In this document: piece by piece, positions 16,007 through 58,912 of the stretch
Numbering within the stretch: position 1 is the stretch's first letter
How the letters are laid out: each line of letters opens with the position of its first letter
From: PVC group bacterium
Lineage (GTDB): Bacteria; Omnitrophota; Gorgyraeia; B26-G9
Direction: 5' to 3'
Assembly: GCA_024231215.1 (NCBI GenBank)
Contig: JAAEQR010000072.1
Location: forward strand, 65,210 to 129,209
Length of the DNA: 64,000 nucleotides
The notes under the pieces: generated by a model
Seen by the model: only the letters and a program-made list of their open reading frames with translations
What the model was told of the DNA's origin: nothing
Databases searched by the model: none
Made by a program: the position numbers and the translations under genes

Positions 16007-19000
16007 ATGTTTAAGGCTCCACCTAATATGTTTTTGAGGATTACCTCACTAGCAATCATCCAAATATTTTTAATTACTAATGTCTCTTTTGCCGGAGGCA
16101 ATTTTTTTGCCCAAAATCAGGGGGAGGACTGTCTTTCGCCTGCCTTAGAGATCAATGCCGGAGCATTAAAGCAGGGAATATTAGCTGTTATTGAGGGAGA
16201 TAGTATTCCCAATGATGTTTCCAGCTTGGAAATGACCACATTATTGGAAACGGCACTGAGTAATCTTAGTGATATTGAAAATAATTCAGAGGACTTAAAT
16301 CTTGAAGTCTTGGAACAGTCAATAGATCAAGTAAGACAAATTAATGCGCAAATTAATTATCTTACGGGGGGTAGTGACGAGGGAGTAAATGATCTTTATT
16401 CAAGATTTCTTAGTAGACGTTCAGATTTAGCAAAAAAAATATCCGCAATAGTAATAAATGATGTTGCTAAGTATGCAGGTGTTTTAGAAAAGCTAGTTAG
16501 TCAATCAAAAGAGGATATGCATAAGCATATAGCTATGATGGTTGAGAATGAGAAGATAACTGCTACACAGGGAGATGCAACATTAAAAACAGCTATAAAG
16601 TTTCTTGAAGAATGGTTAGCTCCAGGAAATAACATTCCTCAATATATTATTCAGGGTATATATAAGGGGATGTTAGAAGGTCGTTCAGGAGATCTCTTAT
16701 ATGCGTATGGATTTGGCTGGCGTCAGTTTGGTACAGCTGGAATCAGGAATCAGGCGGTGCAAAGTGAATTCCCAGTTTTACTTCAGAAAGAAGTTGATGA
16801 ATTTGCTGAAGATGTGCATGCTCCAATATTAACTGGTCCAAATATGATTAATACAGTTACTTTATTGCAGCAGGTGGCAGCTTTGGTTGGATTGGTCAAA
16901 GATATTAGAACCAAATTGCAGCAAAAACTCAATAAAGGTATGAGTTTGGCAAATGCGGCTGAGGAATGTGGAATAGCTGAAGAATTTGCACAAAACATGT
17001 TGGATAACACGATTACCGTTACCTATGATAGTCGGTTGAATGGGGAATATTTTGCTCAGTTGCTTGGTGCCGCATTTTTGCAGAAAGATATAAAAGTAAA
17101 CCTTATGGATAGTCCATCCGGAGTACCGGCTGGAGTTTCTATTGCAAAAGGTGCTTCTTTTTTTGGTGAATTGGTTAAAGATTCTCGTTTTGCTGAGTTT
17201 GAACAGATAACAGGATCTATTTTTGGAATTCTTATTTCTGCCAGTCATAGTGAAGCAGAATATAATGGGTTTAAAGCATTTTTGGCGTATCAAAAATCAC
17301 AAGTAGATGCTGATAGTAAAAATATGATAATGGATGCCAGGGGAAATGTTAACTATAGCGATATAAACATGCGATTAGATACAGGATCTAAAGAAGATTT
17401 AAGATTGATATTTAGAAAATATAAGAATAATTTAATCTGGCTGGGTGGGGAGAAGAAAGTAGATGGCAAAGATTATTGTGGTGCCAAATTCGTACCTTTT
17501 TATCCGCTTTATTTTGAATATTTACGTAAAAGATCACCGATTCCTTATGCTGAATTGTCAAGTGATGATATTGAATCGATTAATGCAGCGAAAAAAGATC
17601 TAGGCATCTTATATACTGCTTTTTATGGTGGCGGATCTGTTTCTGCTGCTAATCTACCGGGATTTTTCCAGGAAATGGGATATGATAATGTAGCTATTGT
17701 AGATAAACAAACTAAAGTTATGGATGGGAAATTTCCAGGGCATATAATGCCTGATCCGGGTGTTGTAGAAGGATGGATGAGTAATTTGTATCATTTTCTT
17801 CAGCAGATAGCCGGAGAGGATTTGTCGGATATAGAAAAAGCCGTAGAAATGCTTAATAATAGACAGACGGGTGCTGCTACAGACCCGGATGTTGACCGGG
17901 CAGGTATGATGTTGGATTTAGAACCAGGGCAGCAAGGCAATGTGCGGGATGCTTTTATTGACTGGATAAGTCGGAATTTACAATACAGAGATGATATTTT
18001 GCCTGAAAAAAAACAACATATTATTAATGTTTTAACAAATAATTTAAAAGATAAATTGTTATTAACGGCAAATGATTCCTGGACATTTATGGCATATTAT
18101 AAGCTGCAGATCAGGGAAAAATATGGGTTGCTGGATAAAAACAAGCTTTACATCATTGAAAAATCCCATGTTACTACAGACGGGCTTGAAAATGTTGCCG
18201 CATATTATCGCAAGAAAGGTTATCGTGTGTATGTTGTGGATACATATGTAGGATTTACAGAATTGGCTAAAAAAAGCCGGGATTTGTTTGCTATAGCAAA
18301 AAAGGCATGGAAGATCAAAAAAATGTTAGATAAGTTAGATGAGCCAAATGAGCAAGAACTAAGGTGGGGTGAACTAGAAGAATTGCTGATAGAACTTAAA
18401 CAAGAGAATAAGATTTTAAAGACTAATGTTCCGTATGCTACCGCTGGATTACCCATAGTTGATGAGGCTATAGAGGCATTTGAAAATAGTAATTTTCAAA
18501 AAGCGGAAGAACTCTGGAATAGTATTGCCCATATGGAGAATATTTTGGCTTGTGAGGAAAGTAACGGTTATGGAGAGCTGGGGGAATATATTCCGGAAGA
18601 AGATAAAGTAGTGAATGCCCACATATCTGAAAAGGATGGAGGGTTAGCTTTGTTTGAGTTTTTTGAAATACTCTCTTATGGAAAAGCTGTTTTGGGAAAA
18701 TCGGAATATTCGATGTTTTTAGATATGCTTAGCGAAATAGGGTATTGTACAACAGATAACCAGTTTTTAAAATATCCGGGGCTTAGCGGGGTTCAGGAAA
18801 AAGTGGATGCGATTGAGAGTTTTGAAAAGGTATTTGCAGCTTTAATTCAAAAGGCTATTGATCAGGGCCAGGTAGTTACTTTATTTAATGGAAAGTATAC
18901 AGTAGAAGAAGTTATCGTTTACAGAGATAAAAAATATGATATTACTTATAATGGGTTTCCTGAGGAAGGAATCCGTTTAGTTTTGCGTACACAGAAGGGG

Positions 19001-22000
19001 AGCAAAGCGATAACAACATTTAGACCTTCCGGCACCGGTGATAATAACCGGGATTATAACTGGATAGTGGGTTTGATTCCTGAGACTGGGACTGATATGG
19101 AAGTTTATAGGAGAGAAAAAGTACAGGAATTAGAAGAACTCAGGGCTGATTTTTTTGGTGAATTTGGAGTTTCTGTTGGTTATGCAGATTTGCCTAAAGG
19201 TGAATTTTATGGATTGTTGACTGCAATGTGGGAATCAGGCAGTAATAGTCATTTAGCAATATTCAACAAAGCTTTAGACATAGAAGTTAACTTTACTTCA
19301 GCTGAAAACAAGTTACTTGATGCTGTAAAAATGTTTACCTTTGCGACAAGAGATAGAAAACGGGAATATATGAAAATGACTCCGGATCAAATGTGCGAAG
19401 AATTGCGTAAGACTCTTTTGTCCGCAAGGCGAAATCGAGCTGCATGGAATAAATATCTTTCTGCGAAGGAAGCAACAGAGTATAAAGATGTATTTAAGGT
19501 ATATGTTAATGGTGAAGTATTTGCTGAAGTCCCGAAAGTTTTTGTTAAACCGTGGATGATCGGGTTTGCCGGATATATTGCTGAAGAGTTGATCGTAAAC
19601 AGATTGGATTTAACAAGTGCTTGGGTTGATACGGATGATTTGGAAGTGACAGATGAGATACGTTTTCAGATAGATAAATTACAGCAAATAAGGCAGGAAT
19701 TGAATGAAATGCATAGAGCCGAACGTGAAGCAGCAGAAACTCTTTCTGGAAAACTGCATACACCTTTGGAAACAGAAAATCCTGATATGGCGGCACGATA
19801 TCTCAAGGGTGGATATCAGCAAGATGGATATGGTGTTCCATCGGGAGCGGTCATCGACGGCTCCTTTGCGGTGGGTGTTGCAGGGACTCAGGGATACTAT
19901 GTGTATGGAGGCAAAGAGATATTTCAAGGGATTGTTGCAAGTATGAAGAAGTTTTTCAAAAAACGAGCTAAAAGGTTAGGCAAGCCGATAAAATTGGTTA
20001 TAAAGATAGGTATTGGCGGACAGCATACTCCATTTCAAGCGATTGCTGAGGGATTTCAGGTGGTGGATTCTGAAACAGGAATTATTGTCGGGGAGTATGA
20101 GTTAGGGAAGGATTATGAGACATCTCTTTCGGAAATTGTAGAAAAGATGGGTATTGATTGGGATCAGATAGCTGTTATACCGAGCTCTAAATCCGGTTCT
20201 ACGGATGAGACGATGATGATCTTTGATGATGTTTTAGCTGTACTGCTTAAATATATTGCTTCTATGAAATATAACATTGACGGAGAAAAATTTACAGATA
20301 CTGTTTTTCAGGTATTGCATGAAGTGAATTTTGTTGATGGTAAAGAGCGTTCTGGGAAAGATCTTTTTAAGATAAATAAAGAGCGTTTTGGCACGGATAG
20401 TTTGGTAGAAGTGCTCTATGAACGGTTACAAGATAAAAGGATGCAAATAAGTAAAAGCGGAATAAAAGATATATTTGCGATAGTTCTCGGTAATATGTTT
20501 TTTGAGACTACCGATAGAGTAGAAGCAAGCAGATTGTCAGCATTTATCAGAAACTCCGGACTAGATAAGGAGCTTGGTGAAGATGCTCCAGGGTTTGGTG
20601 CAATGTTTGATAATGTCGGTGGCAGATGGACCAGTGATTTGCATATGATGACATTTCTTGCTTTCCATGATTTAAATGAGGAGCTGTATTATAAGAAAAG
20701 GATGGAAGAAATATTTAGGGTTCTTGCCGGTTCACCTTCAGTGAGGCTGTATCAGGATATAAAAGAAAAAATAGATGATGATGGCACACATAAGGGGTAT
20801 ATGTTAGGCAATCGTATTGCTGAGGAAACGATAACGGATATTGCTCTAGTGTTGCCGGATTATTTATTCTGGTTTGGAAAATCAATAGAACAGAATTTTA
20901 ACGAAAGTACTTGGCAGAAAGGCTTTGTAAATCTTGTTGCGATTAAACAAAGCCAATGGGGTGTTCAGAAAAAAAATTATGTGGACAGGTCTGAAAGACT
21001 GGTAATTAACCTGTCTAACTTAGATATTGATGAAAATAGTTTTAATGTGTATACCCGAAATTTCCCTGATTTTACTAAGTTGCAAAAACAGGATATCTCT
21101 GGTCAGTACGCATCTTTATTTAGCATGTTCTATGGAATTACTCATAATTTGGGTAACCGGCTGATTATCAGAGCACTTACAGCTGCCGGATATAATGTAG
21201 AAGATGTTAACTTAAATGATTTAGATAATCCTGCGACTAAAATTGTTCAGCAAAATCTTTATGTATTACAGCCTTTTGTAGAATTAGGGAAGAAACTATT
21301 GGAAAATAGATTAAAAATGCTGCAATCAGCAGAGGTAAAAAGCCCGGGAGTTATTGCTCAGGCTGAAGATGAGATTAAAAGGCTGGCAAGGGAAGGTACC
21401 ATAGAATCAAATATTCCAAGCATGGATATGCCAGATAGTGTGCAGGATATGGGAACACTGGCTAAGGTTATTAAGCAAGCAATTGAACATGCAAGGCAAG
21501 CTAATCGTAAATTTGCGCCGTTTATTTATTTAGAAGGTGGTAAATTTATGGATATGAGGGATTACCTGACAGAGTTGGGTATAGAGTGGGTTATGCAGGG
21601 TACGGGGGATCAGCATATTAGTTATCAGCAGGTATTAGCTCAGCCGCAGAAATATTCTATATTTATTATTTCATTTGTTCCTGAACAATTTATTCCGGGT
21701 AAGCCGGCAATTGGTTTTGCAAAAGGGTATTTGCATAATATTAGTCCTAATATGGTGAGAGATTATTTTGCGGAAGCTTCTTATCGGGCGCTTACTCAGT
21801 TAAGAGTTGAACAGGGTGGGAGAGGGATCTTCCTGCGTTTAATCGACTCACAGGAAAATATATCTATGATAAAAAAGGCAATGGTGGCAGCTCTGAATGA
21901 TGAAGTTCAAAATGAGATGGTAGCTGATTCACCGGCTGTTGCTGAGAATGATTCTGTAAAAACAGAAGAAGTGATAACTGTTATCCAGAGCGCAATTTAA
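16007..22000 (+). CDS. giant (1,997 aa) exported multidomain protein: Sec signal peptide + unknown N-domain + PGM1-like alpha-D-phosphohexomutase (4 domains) + coiled-coil linker + phosphoglucose-isomerase-like SIS module
   Basis: Signal peptide aa 1-30 (h-region ...SLAIIQIFLITNV, SFA-GG). Phosphohexomutase signatures: FGTAGIRN (nt ~16730), catalytic SASHSE-x3-NGFK (nt ~17237), DGKFPGHIMPDP (nt ~17723), Mg loop DPDVDR (nt ~17882), sugar loop CEESNGYGE plus EKDGGLALFEFF (nt ~18551), phosphate loop RPSGTGD (nt ~19022). PGI signatures: IGIGGQ (nt ~20006), SKSGSTDET (nt ~20186), GGRWTS (nt ~20618), GTGDQHISYQQ catalytic-His region (nt ~21599). Confidence 0.8.
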   Translation: MFKAPPNMFLRITSLAIIQIFLITNVSFAGGNFFAQNQGEDCLSPALEINAGALKQGILAVIEGDSIPNDVSSLEMTTLLETALSNLSDIENNSEDLNLEVLEQSIDQVRQINAQINYLTGGSDEGVNDLYSRFLSRRSDLAKKISAIVINDVAKYAGVLEKLVSQSKEDMHKHIAMMVENEKITATQGDATLKTAIKFLEEWLAPGNNIPQYIIQGIYKGMLEGRSGDLLYAYGFGWRQFGTAGIRNQAVQSEFPVLLQKEVDEFAEDVHAPILTGPNMINTVTLLQQVAALVGLVKDIRTKLQQKLNKGMSLANAAEECGIAEEFAQNMLDNTITVTYDSRLNGEYFAQLLGAAFLQKDIKVNLMDSPSGVPAGVSIAKGASFFGELVKDSRFAEFEQITGSIFGILISASHSEAEYNGFKAFLAYQKSQVDADSKNMIMDARGNVNYSDINMRLDTGSKEDLRLIFRKYKNNLIWLGGEKKVDGKDYCGAKFVPFYPLYFEYLRKRSPIPYAELSSDDIESINAAKKDLGILYTAFYGGGSVSAANLPGFFQEMGYDNVAIVDKQTKVMDGKFPGHIMPDPGVVEGWMSNLYHFLQQIAGEDLSDIEKAVEMLNNRQTGAATDPDVDRAGMMLDLEPGQQGNVRDAFIDWISRNLQYRDDILPEKKQHIINVLTNNLKDKLLLTANDSWTFMAYYKLQIREKYGLLDKNKLYIIEKSHVTTDGLENVAAYYRKKGYRVYVVDTYVGFTELAKKSRDLFAIAKKAWKIKKMLDKLDEPNEQELRWGELEELLIELKQENKILKTNVPYATAGLPIVDEAIEAFENSNFQKAEELWNSIAHMENILACEESNGYGELGEYIPEEDKVVNAHISEKDGGLALFEFFEILSYGKAVLGKSEYSMFLDMLSEIGYCTTDNQFLKYPGLSGVQEKVDAIESFEKVFAALIQKAIDQGQVVTLFNGKYTVEEVIVYRDKKYDITYNGFPEEGIRLVLRTQKGSKAITTFRPSGTGDNNRDYNWIVGLIPETGTDMEVYRREKVQELEELRADFFGEFGVSVGYADLPKGEFYGLLTAMWESGSNSHLAIFNKALDIEVNFTSAENKLLDAVKMFTFATRDRKREYMKMTPDQMCEELRKTLLSARRNRAAWNKYLSAKEATEYKDVFKVYVNGEVFAEVPKVFVKPWMIGFAGYIAEELIVNRLDLTSAWVDTDDLEVTDEIRFQIDKLQQIRQELNEMHRAEREAAETLSGKLHTPLETENPDMAARYLKGGYQQDGYGVPSGAVIDGSFAVGVAGTQGYYVYGGKEIFQGIVASMKKFFKKRAKRLGKPIKLVIKIGIGGQHTPFQAIAEGFQVVDSETGIIVGEYELGKDYETSLSEIVEKMGIDWDQIAVIPSSKSGSTDETMMIFDDVLAVLLKYIASMKYNIDGEKFTDTVFQVLHEVNFVDGKERSGKDLFKINKERFGTDSLVEVLYERLQDKRMQISKSGIKDIFAIVLGNMFFETTDRVEASRLSAFIRNSGLDKELGEDAPGFGAMFDNVGGRWTSDLHMMTFLAFHDLNEELYYKKRMEEIFRVLAGSPSVRLYQDIKEKIDDDGTHKGYMLGNRIAEETITDIALVLPDYLFWFGKSIEQNFNESTWQKGFVNLVAIKQSQWGVQKKNYVDRSERLVINLSNLDIDENSFNVYTRNFPDFTKLQKQDISGQYASLFSMFYGITHNLGNRLIIRALTAAGYNVEDVNLNDLDNPATKIVQQNLYVLQPFVELGKKLLENRLKMLQSAEVKSPGVIAQAEDEIKRLAREGTIESNIPSMDMPDSVQDMGTLAKVIKQAIEHARQANRKFAPFIYLEGGKFMDMRDYLTELGIEWVMQGTGDQHISYQQVLAQPQKYSIFIISFVPEQFIPGKPAIGFAKGYLHNISPNMVRDYFAEASYRALTQLRVEQGGRGIFLRLIDSQENISMIKKAMVAALNDEVQNEMVADSPAVAENDSVKTEEVITVIQSAI

Positions 22001-22008
22001 ACAATAAT

Positions 22009-22072
22009 TTAGCTGCAAATACCGACATGCCCCGTCAGGGTTTTTCTGACGGGGTTTTGTTATATAATAAGG
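22009..22072 (+). repeat. ~65-bp intergenic repeat copy A (TTAGCTGCAAATACCGACATG-[hairpin]-TTTTGTTAT-ATAAGG)
   Basis: ~85% identical to the copy at 24712-24777, same orientation. Confidence 0.8.
22030..22060 (+). terminator. rho-independent terminator after giant gene (CCCCGTCAG-loop-CTGACGGGG + TTTTGTTAT)
   Basis: 9-bp GC-rich stem at 22030-22038/22046-22054 followed by a T-tract. Lies inside repeat copy A. Confidence 0.7.
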
Positions 22073-22088: not shown

Positions 22089-24434
22089 TTAAATTGACTG
22101 TTCATAGATAAAATGATTATTTATTTCATCTTGAATTTTATGATTATTTTTTGAAGACATATTGATATCCTTGTCCCATGAATTTTGTTTTTCTTCTATT
22201 AAGTCTACTATCCGTTTTCCATAGCCGTTGATTCCATCTTCATTTTCAATTGCTTCTAAAGACATCCAAAGCCAATCAATAGCATTTTGCACAGTATCAA
22301 CATCGTCTTTCACATTAGCTCTAGCATTAGCGCTTACTGATTCATACAATTTCTTATTAGTAAATAAGCTGTACAATCTATTCGCTACTTTTAACTCCTG
22401 AGCCCCATTGCGACTAACTATAAATGTCGAACCGGTTATTTTTCCTGCTTTTTTTCTAACAGGCACTGCCTGATCAACCGGTCCCGGGAGATCAGTAATA
22501 ATAGTTGGTATTTCTAGTGAGCCAAGTTCAGAAATTTTTATTTCGTAACCTTCTGCTGTAGATAACTGTGTCCCAACCCAATCATTAGCAGCAAGAACAC
22601 CTAAGATCTGGTCATTATGGCCTATTCGTGCTATTTTGATATCACTGAATAACTCTTTATATTCTAAATATGCTTCTAAGAGATATTTATTATACAAAGG
22701 CATCCCCTCAGGATCATCTATTGCGCCATGCCCGGCAATAACCAACTGTGGTATTTTTGCCTTTGGATAGGTCTCTCCCAATTTATCACGAAAGACTTTA
22801 TAAGCTTTCAAAAGATCAAGGATACCCTTTGCAGGGTCAAAGCGACAAATCTGTAATATATAAGGTCTGGTAAAATCTAATGGCTCCTGTTGAAATTTTG
22901 CTAAAAAGTCTCTTAATTTTTGATCTTCTCGGTCTTTAATATTTACTCGATTGTCATTCTCTAATAAATTTAACAGGTTTTCCTGCTGTTTAGACAATTC
23001 ATTTTTATCTGCTATTTGTAATATTCTTTTATTACTTAGGTTCAGTACTGTATTAAACATATTCATATAATATGATTTGTCGCTTTTACTAAAATAATTA
23101 AATTTGTTAAGTCCGTCAAGACCGCCTAAACCTTGTTTTGAAATATCGGAAGCTGCTCCTTTTTTGATTATTATTTTTTTGTGACGGCGAATATCGTTTG
23201 GGATAAAAGCATCAACTGGATGCGTCACAAAAGCTTCAATGTGAAATTTATTTTTGCGTGCATCCCAAAGATTTTCGAAAATATACTTCCAATTAGTCTT
23301 AGTTGAATTAGAATCATCTAAAGGTAAATCAGTCAAGTTGCTTCTTATCTGGATATGTGATCTATAAAGAATTTTTATATGTGGATATTTTTCTTTAATT
23401 AAAGGTATTAACCCGGATGGTTGATAATCATCAATTATAACTACAGTTGCTCTTTTTATTTTTGGCTCCATTAATTTAAAATTATAATTAGTCCACGCTT
23501 TAAGTCTCTGTTTGTCATGCTCTGTAAGCCTATGATCAAAATTAGCAGCATTTGTATTTTGCAATGCATTATGCATCTTCTTTTTTGTTATGTTCGGAAT
23601 ATCCTCAAACTCTTTACCATCTAGATCCATTGCAAGCCAGTGGGCATCGATACCTAAAAGTTTATAAAGACGAATAAGCGCATGACGCATAAGAGCGACT
23701 CCTCCGCCTTGAGCAGTAGAATTAACAAATACCATATTTAATTTTCTTTTTTTTGCAAGCTTAACAAGATGTAAAAGTGTGTGCCATTTTTTAGGCGGAG
23801 TAATCTTTTTATATTCATCAAGAGTTACTAACGGATTTACTTGGATTTCTCTATTTTTATCGATCATAACTTTGCGTATTACAAGACCAACTTCGTCTAC
23901 TTCAAAGCTATTTGCGGCAAGACTCGCAGCATTCTGAGATATTTGCTCTGATGTGCCATTTGGAAGATTCTCAAATATTTTCACAGGAACAATATCGTTA
24001 TTAAGCCAAAGATTGCTGCCCAGCTTTGCTTTTTCGTTGGCAGATAATCCTTTTCCTTCAATTGCTACGCCATGTACTTTTAAAGGGTTACCCTTCTTGC
24101 GCATGCCCTCAACATCCTCTCTTATAGCTTCAATTATATCCTTATTAGTTCTTAAGAAAGTTTTAGTTTGACCATTCTTACCATTGGAATTAATTGTTAA
24201 GCTAAAGCTATCTTTAGTTATACATATGCCAGCAAAGGCGGGCTCTAAAGATAGCTTATCCAGATAGGCATTCATAACTGTTGACTTGTTTATACTTATG
24301 GAGGGGGATAGCGTGGACATTATGGTGCTATTGGCGGCAAAAGACAAATCCAGATATAAAAATGCCTGGATAATGATAAATGATATTACCTTTAAAAATA
24401 GTCTATTTTTTGATTCGTACTTATACATATACAC
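22089..24434 (-). CDS. TreT-like GT4 retaining glycosyltransferase with signal peptide and ~200-aa N-terminal extension
   Basis: aa 236-300 VNSTAQGGGVALMRHALIRLYKLLGIDAHWLAM...FEDIP...MHNALQN closely matches the N-terminal motif of trehalose glycosyltransferring synthase (TreT). FDPAKGILDLLKAY. E628-x7-E636 (STAEGYEIKISELGSL...ITDLPG) GT4 motif. N-terminal signal peptide MYMYKYESKNRLFLKVISFIIIQAFLYLDLSFA-AN. Confidence 0.75.
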   Translation of the reverse strand: MYMYKYESKNRLFLKVISFIIIQAFLYLDLSFAANSTIMSTLSPSISINKSTVMNAYLDKLSLEPAFAGICITKDSFSLTINSNGKNGQTKTFLRTNKDIIEAIREDVEGMRKKGNPLKVHGVAIEGKGLSANEKAKLGSNLWLNNDIVPVKIFENLPNGTSEQISQNAASLAANSFEVDEVGLVIRKVMIDKNREIQVNPLVTLDEYKKITPPKKWHTLLHLVKLAKKRKLNMVFVNSTAQGGGVALMRHALIRLYKLLGIDAHWLAMDLDGKEFEDIPNITKKKMHNALQNTNAANFDHRLTEHDKQRLKAWTNYNFKLMEPKIKRATVVIIDDYQPSGLIPLIKEKYPHIKILYRSHIQIRSNLTDLPLDDSNSTKTNWKYIFENLWDARKNKFHIEAFVTHPVDAFIPNDIRRHKKIIIKKGAASDISKQGLGGLDGLNKFNYFSKSDKSYYMNMFNTVLNLSNKRILQIADKNELSKQQENLLNLLENDNRVNIKDREDQKLRDFLAKFQQEPLDFTRPYILQICRFDPAKGILDLLKAYKVFRDKLGETYPKAKIPQLVIAGHGAIDDPEGMPLYNKYLLEAYLEYKELFSDIKIARIGHNDQILGVLAANDWVGTQLSTAEGYEIKISELGSLEIPTIITDLPGPVDQAVPVRKKAGKITGSTFIVSRNGAQELKVANRLYSLFTNKKLYESVSANARANVKDDVDTVQNAIDWLWMSLEAIENEDGINGYGKRIVDLIEEKQNSWDKDINMSSKNNHKIQDEINNHFIYEQSI

Positions 24435-24711: not shown

Positions 24712-24777
24712 TTAGTTGCAAATACCGATATGCCCCGTCAGGTTTTTTTTGACGGGATTTTGTTATTTTCAATAAGG
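24712..24777 (+). repeat. ~65-bp intergenic repeat copy B with terminator-like hairpin (CCCGTCA-GGTTTTTTT-TGACGGG)
   Basis: Direct repeat of 22009-22072. Located in the divergent promoter region between the GT4 gene (-) and mscS (+). Confidence 0.8.
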
Positions 24778-32247: not shown

Positions 32248-32496
32248 ATGTTTAGTGTTGGGATGCCGGAGCTTATTTTAGTGTTTGTGGTGGCTTTACT
32301 TGTTTTTGGGCCGCGTAAGCTGCCTGAAATTGGTCGTACCCTGGGAAAGGCTATGCGCGAATTTAAGCGTGCAGCCGATGATTTTAAAGAAGCAATAAAT
32401 CAGGAACCTCCAGAAGAATTGGTAAAAGAAGTAGAAGATAAGTTAAAGGCGAATGAAGAAGAGCTGAAAAAAGAAGGGAAGGAGCTTAGTGGTTAA
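32248..32496 (+). CDS. tatA: twin-arginine translocase subunit TatA/TatB family
   Basis: [42 protein letters not shown]: TM helix + hinge Gly-Pro + amphipathic helix. Confidence 0.85.
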
Positions 32497-33223
32497 GACA
32501 AAATCCCGTATGGATAACCCCCTGTCGATTATTCAGCATTTAGAGGAGATGCGTAACCGGATTCTTATTTCTTTGCTTTTAATTATCGTTTGTACTTCTT
32601 TAGGCTATAGTTTTATTCCTCAGATAATGAAGATTATTACGAAGCCTGTAGGTAAACTTTATTTCATGGGGCCGACTGAGGCTTTCTGGGTGCAATTAAA
32701 AGTAGCTTTGTTTGTCGGACTTTATTTTTCTCTGCCGTTTATTTTTTATCAAGTCTGGAAGTTTGTAGAGATTGGACTGAAGCAGAAAGAAAGATCTTTT
32801 CTTGGTCCGTTGAGTTTTTCTTCATTTTTTCTGTTTAGTGTAGGAGGGGCTTTTTGTTATCTGATAGTTATTCCGGTCGCAATGAAATTCCTGCTTTCTT
32901 ATGGATCGTCGATTTTACAGCCATTGATTTCGGTAAGTAAATATGTATCATTTATCGGATGTATGATTTTTGCTTTTGGTATTACTTTTCAGTTGCCGTT
33001 GGTTATGCTGTTTCTCGGTCGGCTGGGGATTGTTCAGGATCAGGCTTTGAGGAAGTTCCGGCGTTTTGCTATTGTCGGTAGTTTTATTATTGCTGCTGCG
33101 CTTACACCTACGCCGGATATGGTGAATCAGACACTTTTGGCTTTGCCGATTATTGTGTTGTATGAGTTGAGTATTTGGTTAGTGAAAATTTTCGGACGCA
33201 AGGAAAATGATAATTTGGAATAA
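32489..33223 (+). CDS. tatC: twin-arginine translocase subunit TatC
   Basis: Six TM helices. N-terminal [15 protein letters not shown]. Conserved TatC P/G-rich loops. Confidence 0.85.
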
Positions 33224-35921: not shown

Positions 35922-36383
35922 TTAAAGATACGTCTTTAATTTTTCCCAGGTTTTGGGGCCGACAACCCCATCTATAGTTAAATTATTTTCTCTCTGAAAT
36001 TCGCGGATTACTTTTTTTGTCTTAGGCCCCATTTGTCCGTCAATATGCCCAGGGTTAAATCCAGCTCCTTTTAACGCTTTTTGTATATCAGTGATGCGTA
36101 TTTTTTTCGCGATAGTCGAAGAGTCTTTTCCCACCGCGGGCAAAACTTCTGCCGGGGATACCGATACCGGATTTTGATAGTCTTGTCCTTGTTCAGAGAG
36201 CAACTTTATATTCATCTCCGGTCTACTAATTATCTGGATTTCCGGAGAAACACATTCTTCAGGCGCTGCTTTTTTAGCCGCCTTCGGGTGTTTTCCCATT
36301 GCCATGACCGGAAGAAGAAGGGATGTTTTCAGCATGAGAGCGACAATTAAAAGTGCTGTGAAAAACAAAAGCCTTCTTTTCAA
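35922..36383 (-). CDS. peptidoglycan-binding (PG_binding_1) domain protein, exported
   Basis: Signal peptide. C-terminal LKGAGFNPGHIDGQMGPKTKKVIREFQRENNLTIDGVVGPKTWEKL matches the PG_binding_1 repeat. Confidence 0.65.
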   Translation of the reverse strand: MKRRLLFFTALLIVALMLKTSLLLPVMAMGKHPKAAKKAAPEECVSPEIQIISRPEMNIKLLSEQGQDYQNPVSVSPAEVLPAVGKDSSTIAKKIRITDIQKALKGAGFNPGHIDGQMGPKTKKVIREFQRENNLTIDGVVGPKTWEKLKTYL

Positions 36384-56836: not shown

Positions 56837-57733
56837 GTGATGGTTAAAAAGGATAATGATTATAATACAATTCTGCAAGAATGGAAAACCCTTCGTGGGG
56901 AAACTCTCCAATCTCAAAAACAAAGACTGAATACTTTCAGGACATCAATAATAATATTAGCGGTTATTTATATTGCGTATTTAATCCCGGGATTGAAGCT
57001 ATATAAACAGCCGTTATTTTTTCAGACATTCATTTTATTGTTTCTTACCCCGATTGTTCGTTTTGTTAGTTCTCTCAGGTTGCGGGATAGTTTTCATGCT
57101 TGCTATATTGAAAATTTCATCAAGATGCAATTACCGCAGGTGCGTTATATTGCCCGGTTCAGTGAATTTAAAAAGAATTTTCGCAATCAAATATCAGCCG
57201 CGGAAAGAATCAGATGTACTTATTTGCAAATAGGCATATCAACTATACCTTTTACAATCGGGTATTCGTTTTTTTTATTTGAGCCGGGGACTCTATGGTA
57301 TGTTCGTTTAGGTGCGTATACTCCTTATCATGACTTGTGGCTGCGGGTTGGTTTTTTCGTAAGCGCATTGATTTATTTTATTTGGACGATTTATGTTTGT
57401 CGTTATGATACGCAGAAAACAACTAAATTTTTTAATGAATTAAGGCAAATTCTGATCAAGGAATTGTTGACCGGAGAGATTGTTCCTTATGGCTTTAACA
57501 CTGGTTCGTTTCAGCATCCGGAAGCTTGGCATTCGCTTTTTGGGAAGGAAAATATTACGCAGAAGAAAGATATTTTATTGTCTCTAAAAAAGCTAGAAGA
57601 TGAATTCGCGGGAGTGAAATTTCTGATTAAATCTTTAAATAAAATGTGGTTTAAAAATCCAGTTAAAGATTTATTGTATTATGATCTAGAGAAAGAAGAG
57701 TATGGAGATAAAACGCGGTTGATATTAAATTGA
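56837..57733 (+). CDS. hypothetical integral membrane protein (4-5 TM)
   Basis: Hydrophobic segments. No motifs recognised. Confidence 0.4.
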   Translation: MMVKKDNDYNTILQEWKTLRGETLQSQKQRLNTFRTSIIILAVIYIAYLIPGLKLYKQPLFFQTFILLFLTPIVRFVSSLRLRDSFHACYIENFIKMQLPQVRYIARFSEFKKNFRNQISAAERIRCTYLQIGISTIPFTIGYSFFLFEPGTLWYVRLGAYTPYHDLWLRVGFFVSALIYFIWTIYVCRYDTQKTTKFFNELRQILIKELLTGEIVPYGFNTGSFQHPEAWHSLFGKENITQKKDILLSLKKLEDEFAGVKFLIKSLNKMWFKNPVKDLLYYDLEKEEYGDKTRLILN

Positions 57734-58912
57734 AGATCCAATAATATCTGTTTGCATCGGTAAATCGTGTCTTAGACTTTCGATGCTGAGAGAATTGGCG
57801 ATTGCTCTAATTGTTATTACGGGAGGAAAAGAGTTAAGCATTAGTAAAAGATGGTTATTAAAATCATTAAAAGAGGGGAAGAAAGGTTCTACTAGCCGGG
57901 GCGACAATTGATGTATAAGTGCAAACTTGTTAGAGTTTGCTATTATTCCTAATCTGACAGTTTCGGGCAGATCTTCTGTAGAAGATACAAATATCGATAA
58001 CAGGTCAATTAAATACGGAGCATATCGCGTTCCTCGATTGCTTATAAGGTCTATAAAAGTCGCGGCAATGCTTTTTTGAGCCTTGTGCAGTGCCATCTGA
58101 TATGGCCGGTAACCAGCCATGGCATCGCCGGAATCAACAATACTTAGTAGTTGAGCTTCGATGGTGGTATTTTCGCCTGTTTTTTTATGAGGGTATCCTG
58201 TCCCGTCAAAAGATTCATGATGTTCTTCCATTATTCGTTTTAGATTTTGGGTGAGTATTGAGTTTGGAAGAGGGAGTTGATAGGGGATTATAACGTGGCC
58301 TTGCATTATGGCGTATTCGTCGTCAGTTAGTGGCCCATCGGTTTTATTTATAATATGACTAGGTATTTCCGCTTTCCCGATATCGTGATAACGAGCTGCA
58401 AGGACTAAAAGTCCTAAATCTACAGCTGGAGGGATAGTAACAGCATTGAATCTTAGTCCATAGTGATAAGCCAGGATCATAACTCTTTTTTTATGATTAA
58501 CCGTCCATTCATCCAGGTTTTTATTATTTATTTCCTCTTTTTCTTTAGCTTCAAAAAAATCTATTAGATAATGTAAATCAGGTTTGGTGGCCTTAATTGA
58601 AGCCATAATTTTGTTTACTTTTAAATCAATATATTCTTGAGAGTTTCTCTCATAAAGAGCGTCTATGTCTTTTCGGATTTTTTGTGCTTGGTAATTTTCA
58701 ATTATTTTTAATCGTTCGGCTCTAGGCAAGTTTCTGTTTCCGGAGCTCTTTTTGAAGACAGATTTAAGCGATTTTTCCGAGATGGTTAAAGGAGCATTGA
58801 TATTATTGCGTGCATGTGGGCATAGTTGTGCGTTTGCAGCAGGAGCGGAAGTTAGCCAAACCGCGAGCAAAAGAATATAGACTGTAGTTTTTAGTAATAT
58901 TGAGTTCTTCAT
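57725..58912 (-). CDS. HD-GYP domain protein with N-terminal signal peptide/anchor and ~180-aa N-domain
   Basis: HD motif (LAARYHDIGKAEIP), GYP motif (HHESFDGTGYPH). N-terminal MKNSILLKTTVYILLLAVWLTSAPAANA. Confidence 0.75.
   Translation of the reverse strand: MKNSILLKTTVYILLLAVWLTSAPAANAQLCPHARNNINAPLTISEKSLKSVFKKSSGNRNLPRAERLKIIENYQAQKIRKDIDALYERNSQEYIDLKVNKIMASIKATKPDLHYLIDFFEAKEKEEINNKNLDEWTVNHKKRVMILAYHYGLRFNAVTIPPAVDLGLLVLAARYHDIGKAEIPSHIINKTDGPLTDDEYAIMQGHVIIPYQLPLPNSILTQNLKRIMEEHHESFDGTGYPHKKTGENTTIEAQLLSIVDSGDAMAGYRPYQMALHKAQKSIAATFIDLISNRGTRYAPYLIDLLSIFVSSTEDLPETVRLGIIANSNKFALIHQLSPRLVEPFFPSFNDFNNHLLLMLNSFPPVITIRAIANSLSIESLRHDLPMQTDIIGSSI

Follow-up and report, generated by a model that had tools for sequence, protein, structure and literature searches.

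A 64-kb stretch of an Omnitrophota genome (64,000 nucleotides of contig JAAEQR010000072.1, assembly GCA_024231215.1, 'PVC group bacterium'; hereafter the window) carries two convergent genes whose products begin with the same conserved leader. The gene on the minus strand encodes a glycosyltransferase (GT) of the GT4 family, and the one on the plus strand at 16007-22000 encodes a much larger PGM-like protein, which we call the giant. Calling of open reading frames (ORFs) bore out what the earlier note had read here, a single uninterrupted ORF at 22089..24434 that converges with the giant gene. Counted from the GTG at 24434 this ORF has 781 aa; the ATG at 24428, two codons further on, is the likelier start and gives a 779-aa product, to which residue numbers refer unless 781-aa numbering is stated. 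The 779-aa form is 100% identical to P0001, a hypothetical protein of a metagenome-assembled genome labelled 'PVC group bacterium', on a 708-kb contig. Its nearest relatives are P0002 (labelled Candidatus Omnitrophota) and P0003 (from a JGI metagenome), each of 802 aa, with 63-65% identity at 99% coverage, and genome and metagenome scans found no other close orthologues. An AF2 model built from a 49-sequence alignment (pLDDT 85.8, pTM 0.86) goes with a protein of three parts, namely the leader (residues 1 to ~50), a folded N-terminal domain (N-domain, ~60-200) and a GT4 catalytic core (~205-735). Measured against its ~600-aa family, only the three Omnitrophota orthologues have residues 1 to ~58, a helical insertion of ~45 residues at ~460-505 and a C-terminal tail. 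The GT itself is a known kind of enzyme in a new variation, and the conserved leader class is the more interesting result.

The GT N-terminus reads MYKYESKNRLFLKVISFIIIQAFLYLDLSFA up to the predicted cleavage point and ANSTIMSTLSPSISIN beyond it; the corresponding parts of the giant read MFKAPPNMFLRITSLAIIQIFLITNVSFA and GGNFFAQNQGEDCLSPALEIN. Basic residues in the GT (K3, K7, R9, K13) precede a 15-residue core and the site S29-F30-A31↓A32 (SFA↓AN, the arrow marking predicted cleavage), and the leader is the only hydrophobic segment of the protein. A leader profile built from 10 N-termini was run exhaustively against 1.84 billion representative proteins (E<=1e-3) and found 63 proteins, 55-3538 aa long. 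In 61 of the 63 the match falls inside the first ~96 residues, in nearly all of them inside the first ~60, and in the GT it covers residues 7-54. Every member that bears a source name is from Candidatus Omnitrophota. We also made an independent hidden Markov model (HMM) from the 56 new non-window matches only and scored it on all 127 window ORFs. Scores were 61.6 bits for the giant, 56.7 bits (E 1e-17) for the GT and 5.8 bits or less for the other 125 ORFs; these low scorers include an S41 peptidase, an outer membrane protein barrel and an OmpA lipoprotein, all with ordinary signal peptides. The GT and the adjacent giant are the only two leader carriers in the window, and in this respect the link between them in the earlier note is real. 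The signal-peptide-like N-terminus that it had recognised in the GT was likewise upheld, being kept in P0002 and P0003 and matched by both the profile and the independent HMM.

Across the class the leader is 25-34 residues long, with a net charge of about +1.8 before the core and about -0.2 after it. A Lys or Arg at -17 (97%) stands before a fixed 15-residue core, hhShhhhQxFLxxD/Nh, whose conserved columns are S/A at -14, Q at -9 (77%), F at -7 (93%), L at -6 (84%) and D/N at -3 (79%). The site that follows is [A/S/C][W/F/Y]A↓[G/A], with A/S/C at -3 in 79% and Ala at -1 in 95% of members. After a spacer of 8-17 residues (mode 13) comes a second conserved element, the LSP box, with the consensus [D/S][T/C]-L-S-P-x-h-Q-I-N (L 100%, S 82%, P 95%). 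No Pfam-A or NCBIfam (release 20) model matches the leader, and an alignment of 6 leaders found nothing in a word index of 5.8 billion proteins, where only 13 candidates had words in common with it. The class appears undescribed, both in these collections and in the Omnitrophota papers cited here (10.1101/2023.11.21.568195, 10.64898/2026.06.07.730766, PMC10066038).

If the GT were an ordinary cytoplasmic TreT or trehalose phosphorylase whose start had been mis-called, its hydrophobic N-terminus would be an untranslated stretch and no leader at all. Homologues of ~600 aa do begin about 10 residues ahead of the conserved domain, and internal Met codons are available at M38 and M54 in 781-aa numbering (M36 and M52 in the 779-aa form). 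However, the leader is conserved at the protein level in both full-length orthologues, which have no Met between leader and domain, so it is not the product of a mis-called start, even though the ~600-aa homologues are without it. The leader family moreover stands on ~60 unrelated proteins with library-wide significance, and a Shine-Dalgarno-like AGGTG lies ahead of the annotated start; we regard this explanation as effectively refuted.

Other candidates for the class, or for the nature of its signal, were set aside. A lipoprotein signal was rejected, as the c-region lacks the Cys of a lipobox (L-[AS]-[GA]-C) and the Cys of the LSP box follows D/S and is Thr in 57% of members, the GT included. 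Proteins of 602 aa (L001) and 1089 aa (L002) that had been picked out by a regular expression gave no HMM match at E<=1e-3. So too a 153-aa window protein (35922-36383, minus strand), in which an ordinary signal peptide is followed by the box-like EECVSPEIQII and a PG_binding_1 domain (E 4.7e-18), scored 0.9 bits with the independent HMM. Its likeness to the LSP box is fortuitous or else that of a very remote variant and, because the HMM rejects its membership, it is no evidence for a periplasmic location. The top non-member score, 5.8 bits, belongs to a 395-aa HD/HD_5 (HD-GYP-like) phosphohydrolase at 57725-58912 (minus strand) with one Cys and a signal-peptide-like N-terminus, MKNSILLKTTVYILLLAVWLTSAPAANA, another cytoplasmic-type domain behind a hydrophobic N-terminus.

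Table 1. Features of the GT gene and its surroundings; the arrow marks predicted cleavage.
Feature	Position	Strand	Description and basis
Whole GT gene	22089..24428	minus	779-aa leader-tagged TreT/trehalose-phosphorylase-like GT4 enzyme; stop codon 22089-22091; from ORF and translation
Leader part 1, aa 1-31: MYKYESKNRLFLK-VISFIIIQAFLYLDL-SFA↓A	24336..24428	minus	Basic n-region, 15-aa h-region (S, Q, F-L, D conserved), signal-peptidase-I-type site
Leader part 2, LSP box, aa 38-47, STLSPSISIN	24288..24317	minus	In disordered linker; pLDDT <50 for aa 27-58
N-terminal folded domain, aa ~60-200, βββαβαβα	23829..24251	minus	Resembles one ASKHA/ROK-kinase lobe; no DxGxT phosphate loop
GT-B catalytic core, aa ~205-735	22224..23816	minus	Catalytic residues D334, H358, R529/K534 (RxxxxK), E626/E634 (EX7E)
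Helical insertion, lineage-specific, aa ~460-505	22914..23051	minus	Gap in BLASTP alignment to P0004; present in P0002; AF2 confident helices
Leader-tagged 1997-aa neighbour (giant)	16007..22000	plus	Leader HMM 61.6 bits; Pfam PGM_PMM_I/II; PGM-like core, PGI-like C-terminal region by motifs only
Giant leader, aa 1-29 (MFKAPPNMFLR-ITSLAIIQIFLITNV-SFA↓G), and box DCLSPALEIN (aa 41-50)	16007..16156	plus	HMM; leader 52% identical over 44 aa to P0156
55-nt direct repeat, copy 1	22009..22063	plus	Contains terminator hairpin; between convergent giant gene and GT
55-nt direct repeat, copy 2	24712..24766	plus	91% identical; upstream of GT promoter region; no plus-strand gene ends there

A positive n-region, a short core, small residues at both -3 and -1 and a flank that turns neutral or acidic after the core give the leader the features of a Sec-type signal peptide for signal peptidase I, and we lean towards the view that it directs Sec-type export with cleavage. 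The boundary of its n- and h-regions could also be taken for a divergent Tat-type signal, with the enzymes exported folded and possibly as oligomers. The pattern x-R-x-F-(F/L)-K (KNRLFLK in the GT, NRIFLK in P0167, KRIFLK in P0187) resembles S/T-R-R-x-F-L-K, the cargo consists of cytoplasmic-type multi-domain enzymes, and the window encodes TatC (32489-33223), the syntenic loci TatA/TatC. Yet a twin arginine occurs in only one of 36 parsed leaders, where the commonest pairs are NR, TN, KK, SR and KR, the h-region is just as hydrophobic as those of ordinary signal peptides in the window, and the cargo reaches 3538 aa, far above known Tat substrates. Export by Tat is accordingly an improbable explanation.

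Behind the leader stand a number of sugar-phosphate enzymes of normally cytoplasmic kinds. Pfam domains on the 56 new carriers include FBPase_glpX (four), PGM, PGI and AAA_5 (three each), class II aldolase and GT group 1 (two each), and further transaldolase, TIM, FBPase_3, methyltransferases, HATPase_c and HEAT repeats; none of the 25 listed Pfam families is a classical periplasmic one. Several carriers join more than one activity behind one leader, such as FBPase-aldolase-TIM (P0164), FBPase-aldolase (P0165) and PGM-PGI (P0156, with a canonical PF00342 match). In another (P0154) the leader precedes an enzyme like TreT proper that has no N-domain; because its core is only 24% identical to that of the GT and its leader 42%, two separate TreT-like lineages have acquired the same leader. 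Five consecutive co-directional leader genes (626, 301, 757, 868 and 1400 aa; two with HEAT repeats, one with PPDK_N and PEP-utilizers) were found at 6592-19441 of L008/L009 (GCA_004196255.1). They lie directly downstream of a gene of 5.8-6.9 thousand codons whose product has SecA_DEAD, SecA_PP_bind and Glucan_synthase domains; after them come an MFS transporter gene and a GH2-like gene.

The giant belongs to an Omnitrophota family (P0122-P0145) of proteins of 1.1-3.4 thousand residues, most of which carry this leader or a related one. They have in common a divergent PGM-like core of ~1100 aa, in which SASHSE replaces TASHNP in the catalytic loop and the metal loop retains DPDxDR; in the giant itself these motifs are SASHSE at residue 411 and DPDVDR at residue 626. 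Fusion partners within the family include PGI, cupin-type GPI, hexokinase, UDP-glucose pyrophosphorylase, PFK, iPGM, aldo-keto reductase and methyltransferases. The earlier note had called the giant a PGM-PGI fusion. Its PGM half stands, with Pfam matches to PGM_PMM_I/II, but the PGI half has only two short motifs to go by, SKSGSTDET at 1394 and GGRWT at 1538. A PDB profile search with the C-terminus gave no match, hhalign against PGI-bearing relatives reached 10.8% probability, in the SKSG region, and the AF2 model of this part has a pLDDT of 42. The middle 600 aa (residues ~650-1250) belong to no recognisable family.

The gene order of the window (10849-34676) recurs in two Omnitrophota contigs (L011:1084-23672 and L012:4434-25488) as rlmN-NYN-OMP-PEMT-recJ-[slot]-(mscS)-yggT-trkH-hemB-...-tatC, at 52-78% amino-acid identity. 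The slot is filled each time by a leader-tagged multi-enzyme protein: the 1997-aa PGM/PGI-like giant in the window, a 1277-aa PGM-PGI protein in L011 and a 2185-aa TAL-PGI protein in L012. Only the leader is detectable by BLAST between these proteins (52% over 44 aa), the enzyme parts being barely alignable, and the leader is thus their best-conserved part. The GT is absent from both syntenic loci, although the slot is occupied there. Conversely, no PGM-family giant lies within 10 kb of the two orthologous GT loci, which sit in unrelated neighbourhoods.

The spacer between the GT and giant genes is 88 bp long and holds a strong hairpin terminator. The 55-nt direct repeats (Table 1), present in two copies in the window against none expected by chance and each with a GC-rich terminator hairpin, bracket exactly the GT gene and its promoter region, a 2.7-kb segment with no mobility gene inside. 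Flanking direct repeats were not found at the orthologous GT loci. Since the GT is missing from both syntenic loci and is bracketed by the repeats, it is a lineage-specific single-gene insertion beside the slot and not part of an ancestral operon. The suggestion of the earlier note that GT and giant form a module exported as a unit fails here: the genes are convergent, and a check of relatives showed that the pair is neither conserved nor an operon. The number of sites from a promoter scan did not exceed that in shuffled sequence. GC skew is strongly positive (0.16-0.33) and near uniform over the plus-strand genes and drops where minus-strand genes lie, to -0.08 over the GT and 0.02-0.13 across 34-44 kb; GC content has its minimum, 0.337-0.340, across the GT-mscS segment.

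The ~200-aa N-terminal domain of unknown function that the earlier note had described in this GT resolves into the leader of ~58 aa and a folded domain of ~140 aa, which is also found in hundreds of leaderless homologues. In BLASTP against a 624-aa homologue, residue 12 of the homologue aligns to query residue 64 (781-aa numbering), and W141 and D145 are invariant across the family alignment, the fungal P0118 included. Because leaderless homologues align there and these two residues are invariant, the alignment indicates that the N-domain is a feature of the family and not peculiar to the GT gene. In the model it looks like a non-catalytic half of an ASKHA/ROK sugar-kinase fold. It forms one lobe only, the second lobe that would complete the ATP cleft is missing, and the equivalent of the ASKHA strand-turn reads FAGICITKDS, without a DxGxT phosphate-1 loop. 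Sequence searches of Pfam and PDB with this domain gave no match. A precomputed Pfam match, PF27036, accompanies many of the ~600-aa homologues but none of the three orthologues with the leader, and may be a recent model of the N-domain. An Omnitrophota member of the same GT4 family outside the window (P0008, Candidatus Omnitrophota, 1093 aa, 35% identity) has a differing signal-like start, ~170 extra residues ahead of the ASKHA-like domain and a C-terminal extension of ~430 aa without an assigned function.

The catalytic core has the two-Rossmann-lobe GT-B fold of retaining GT4 type. Its best profile matches fall inside the TreT-like GT4 enzymes, as the earlier note had supposed: Pfam TreT_GT1 (PF21269) gives 90.7 bits against a gathering score of 27 (E 8.8e-26, residues 237-403 in 781-aa numbering), and among PDB sequences the TreT enzymes 2x6q (E 4e-20) and 6zj4 come out best. 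Glycos_transf_1 (PF00534), at 24.9 bits, stays under its gathering cutoff of 26.4, and the precomputed match is faint in the orthologues. The motifs quoted in that note are all present, namely VNSTAQGGGVALMRHAL...GIDAHWLAM, HNALQN and the EX7E motif, whose E628/E636 in 781-aa numbering are E626/E634 here. A TreT-type core over the C-terminal ~550 aa is therefore right, but the match is not a close one, with ~24% identity and 92.9 bits from the equivalog model NF041139 against a cutoff of 775, and the GT was rejected as a TreT equivalog. Every family-invariant column is kept, in the motifs DDxQP (D333/D334-x-Q), RSH (R356-S-H358), RFDPxK (R529-F-D-P-x-K534) and EGxExKxxE (E626-G-x-E-x-K-x-x-E634) and at G649 and Q653, and for this reason the GT looks catalytically competent. 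The EX7E motif lies in the C-terminal lobe as E626-GYEIKIS-E634, with both Glu residues invariant across the 49-sequence alignment.

The claim that the GT is a TreT using nucleoside diphosphate (NDP)-glucose is put in doubt by the comparison with its nearest family. This is a large set of proteins of ~600-700 aa from Patescibacteria, Ktedonobacteria, Elusimicrobia and fungi (32-38% identity over 76-91% of the query), several of which JGI names configuration-retaining trehalose phosphorylase, by automatic annotation. The RxxxxK site of the GT, R529-FDPA-K534, is invariant in this family, where the spacing from D334 to H358 is 24 residues in all members and that from Arg to Lys 5 throughout; His and Arg are 104 residues apart in the fungal P0118 and 171 in the GT owing to an insertion. 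The catalytic residues of the Schizophyllum commune enzyme (ScTP) are reported to be Asp379 and His403 (Goedl et al. 2006). The family spacing of 24 and the 104 of P0118 match those between the reported Asp379, His403 and Arg507 of ScTP. Mutagenesis of ScTP has addressed Arg507 and Lys512 of its active-site RXXXXK motif (PMC12018205). The fungal trehalose phosphorylases are the only characterised GT4 phosphorylases, and their family is without a solved structure (PMC8950772, PMC7896129). As the RxxxxK site and the residue spacing are common to the GT and retaining trehalose phosphorylase, a reaction dependent on phosphate and alpha-glucose 1-phosphate (G1P) appears at least as likely as one dependent on NDP-glucose.

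Put together with Sec-type export, these features suggest a mechanism. Leader cleavage after SFA31 would deliver the GT to an extracytoplasmic or membrane-proximal place common to the carriers of TPI, aldolase, FBPase, transaldolase, PGI and PGM. There the GT would catalyse reversible alpha-glucosyl transfer between phosphate (giving G1P) and glucose or a similar acceptor, the chemistry of trehalose phosphorylase, with NDP-glucose the less likely donor. G1P made or used by the GT might be linked to glucose 6-phosphate and fructose 6-phosphate through the neighbouring PGM/PGI-like protein, in steps that need no ATP, and the LSP box, near the start of the mature protein, would be a second element for sorting or docking. 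An extracytoplasmic pathway is chemically possible because the whole chain from triose phosphate to G1P or alpha-glucoside (TPI, aldolase, FBPase, TAL, PGI, PGM and a phosphorylase-type GT) needs no ATP. Glycolytic-type domains of Omnitrophota giant proteins have been predicted to be extracellular (10.1101/2023.11.21.568195; 10.64898/2026.06.07.730766), and the West-Roberts preprint suggested that they might pre-process sugars (10.1101/2023.11.21.568195).

Several points weigh against export, which is itself a prediction from sequence features. The leader stands well apart from the ordinary signal peptides of exported window proteins, and the polar Q and D/N inside its helix are atypical for Sec h-regions. 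Cysteine content, low in the GT (0.26%) and the giant (0.30%) against 1.43% in the other window ORFs, says nothing either way about export, as leaderless relatives are equally poor in Cys (0.43% in the leaderless GT4 family, 0.27% in leaderless PGM-core relatives). Carriers of this or a related leader include AAA ATPases, S-adenosylmethionine (SAM) methyltransferases, a PPDK-like ATP-grasp protein, UDPGP and PFK, and cargo that depends on nucleoside triphosphates or SAM makes little sense outside the cytoplasm. Canonical PGI was detected by KofamScan in only 67 of 176 complete Omnitrophota genomes, so the tagged divergent enzymes could be housekeeping copies that face the cytoplasm.

The leader might instead be a permanent membrane or assembly tag, its helix and LSP box docking the enzymes on the inner membrane or on many-helix giant proteins to form an upper-glycolysis/gluconeogenesis metabolon with the catalytic domains near ATP, UTP and SAM. 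The ATP- and SAM-dependent cargo just listed would be well placed there, as would enzymes that may be housekeeping ones, given that most complete Omnitrophota genomes are without a recognisable canonical PGI or hexokinase and that the slot of the giant lies in a conserved housekeeping neighbourhood (recJ...trkH, hemB). Strictly conserved polar residues in the helix are typical of intramembrane helix-helix contacts, and leader genes cluster beside the giant membrane protein with SecA and glucan-synthase domains. The charge distribution, however, predicts an N-in/C-out orientation with the enzyme outside, and a 15-residue core followed by a near-perfect small-x-small motif points to a cleavable signal peptide. 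A membrane tag is the main rival to export, and we hold it to be rather doubtful.

A predatory or parasitic life with Tad-like machinery has been inferred for Omnitrophota (PMC10066038), and tagged enzymes might be effectors that, after Sec export, are carried by the LSP box in a second step into a host or prey cell to rewire its sugar-phosphate metabolism. Cargo dependent on nucleoside triphosphates would work in a host cytoplasm, and a motif conserved at the start of the mature protein could plausibly be the signal for such a step. Against this, no gene of a secretion system lies near the GT in the window, the GT is without host-interaction domains and the slot neighbourhood is of the housekeeping kind; the idea is purely speculative and, in our judgement, very improbable. 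A broader suggestion, which we put forward tentatively and consider unlikely, is that leader and LSP box together are the label of a dedicated, undescribed sorting route, possibly through the divergent SecA-like modules of giant proteins, that takes the largely ATP-independent chain between triose phosphate and alpha-glucoside out of the cytoplasm, onto a giant-protein scaffold or into a prey cell. If so, upper glycolysis/gluconeogenesis would be spatially apart from the canonical, leaderless lower half.

With a significant profile, a predicted cleavage site and a second box, the leader makes the oddity of 'extracellular glycolytic enzymes of Omnitrophota' testable, and normal-sized soluble single-enzyme carriers such as the 779-aa GT can be expressed, fused to reporters and assayed. 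Were Sec-type export borne out, sugar-phosphate interconversion and trehalose-type phosphorolysis would take place outside the cytoplasm of ultra-small putative predators; were tethering the answer, it would be a new way of building a membrane metabolon. Leader-tagged enzymes may also explain the 'missing' canonical PGI and hexose-entry enzymes of most complete Omnitrophota genomes. The GT and its relatives are the first bacterial candidates, with a confident model, for the structurally uncharacterised GT4 trehalose phosphorylase family.

Specialised signal peptides that mark a class of substrate are known from other bacteria, among them KxYKxGKxW with the AST domain in the accessory Sec system (SecA2/Y2), YSIRK and the Tat motif SRRxFLK. 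The Omnitrophota leader resembles them as a conserved signal on functionally related cargo, and its LSP box can be likened to the AST region that accessory-Sec export requires. It differs in motif, phylum and the metabolic-enzyme nature of its cargo, and has no dedicated translocase or peptidase identified for it. Also close are the sugar modules of Omnitrophota giant proteins, in the same phylum, where PGM, PGI, FBPase, aldolase, TPI and GT group 1 domains are predicted to be extracellular or to follow signal peptides (10.1101/2023.11.21.568195, 10.64898/2026.06.07.730766). Those preprints applied Pfam and topology predictors to proteins of more than 5-10 thousand residues; they describe no leader sequence, LSP box or stand-alone tagged enzymes, and the word 'trehalose' has no occurrence in them.

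Among enzymes, TreT of Thermococcales and Thermoproteales (PDB 2x6q, 6zj4; PF21269; NF041139) is the structurally known likeness at the ~24% identity and sub-cutoff score given above. It is a cytoplasmic, single-module protein of ~410 aa with neither leader nor N-domain, to which the GT adds these parts, the ~45-aa insertion and the C-terminal tail. The retaining GT4 trehalose phosphorylases (EC 2.4.1.231; characterised only in fungi, namely Schizophyllum commune, Grifola frondosa and Pleurotus; BAA31350, AAF22230, ABC84380) are the closest sequence family, of ~600-700 aa and with the fungal P0118 among its members. The GT is like them in having an N-terminal extension domain followed by the core, the RxxxxK site and the residue spacing, a likeness drawn through family members such as P0118. 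It differs in its leader, the phosphorylases being cytoplasmic and leaderless, and stands at 32-38% identity to a bacterial family with no characterised member. Their reaction, trehalose + Pi ⇌ Glc + alpha-G1P, in which Pi is phosphate, links directly to PGM.

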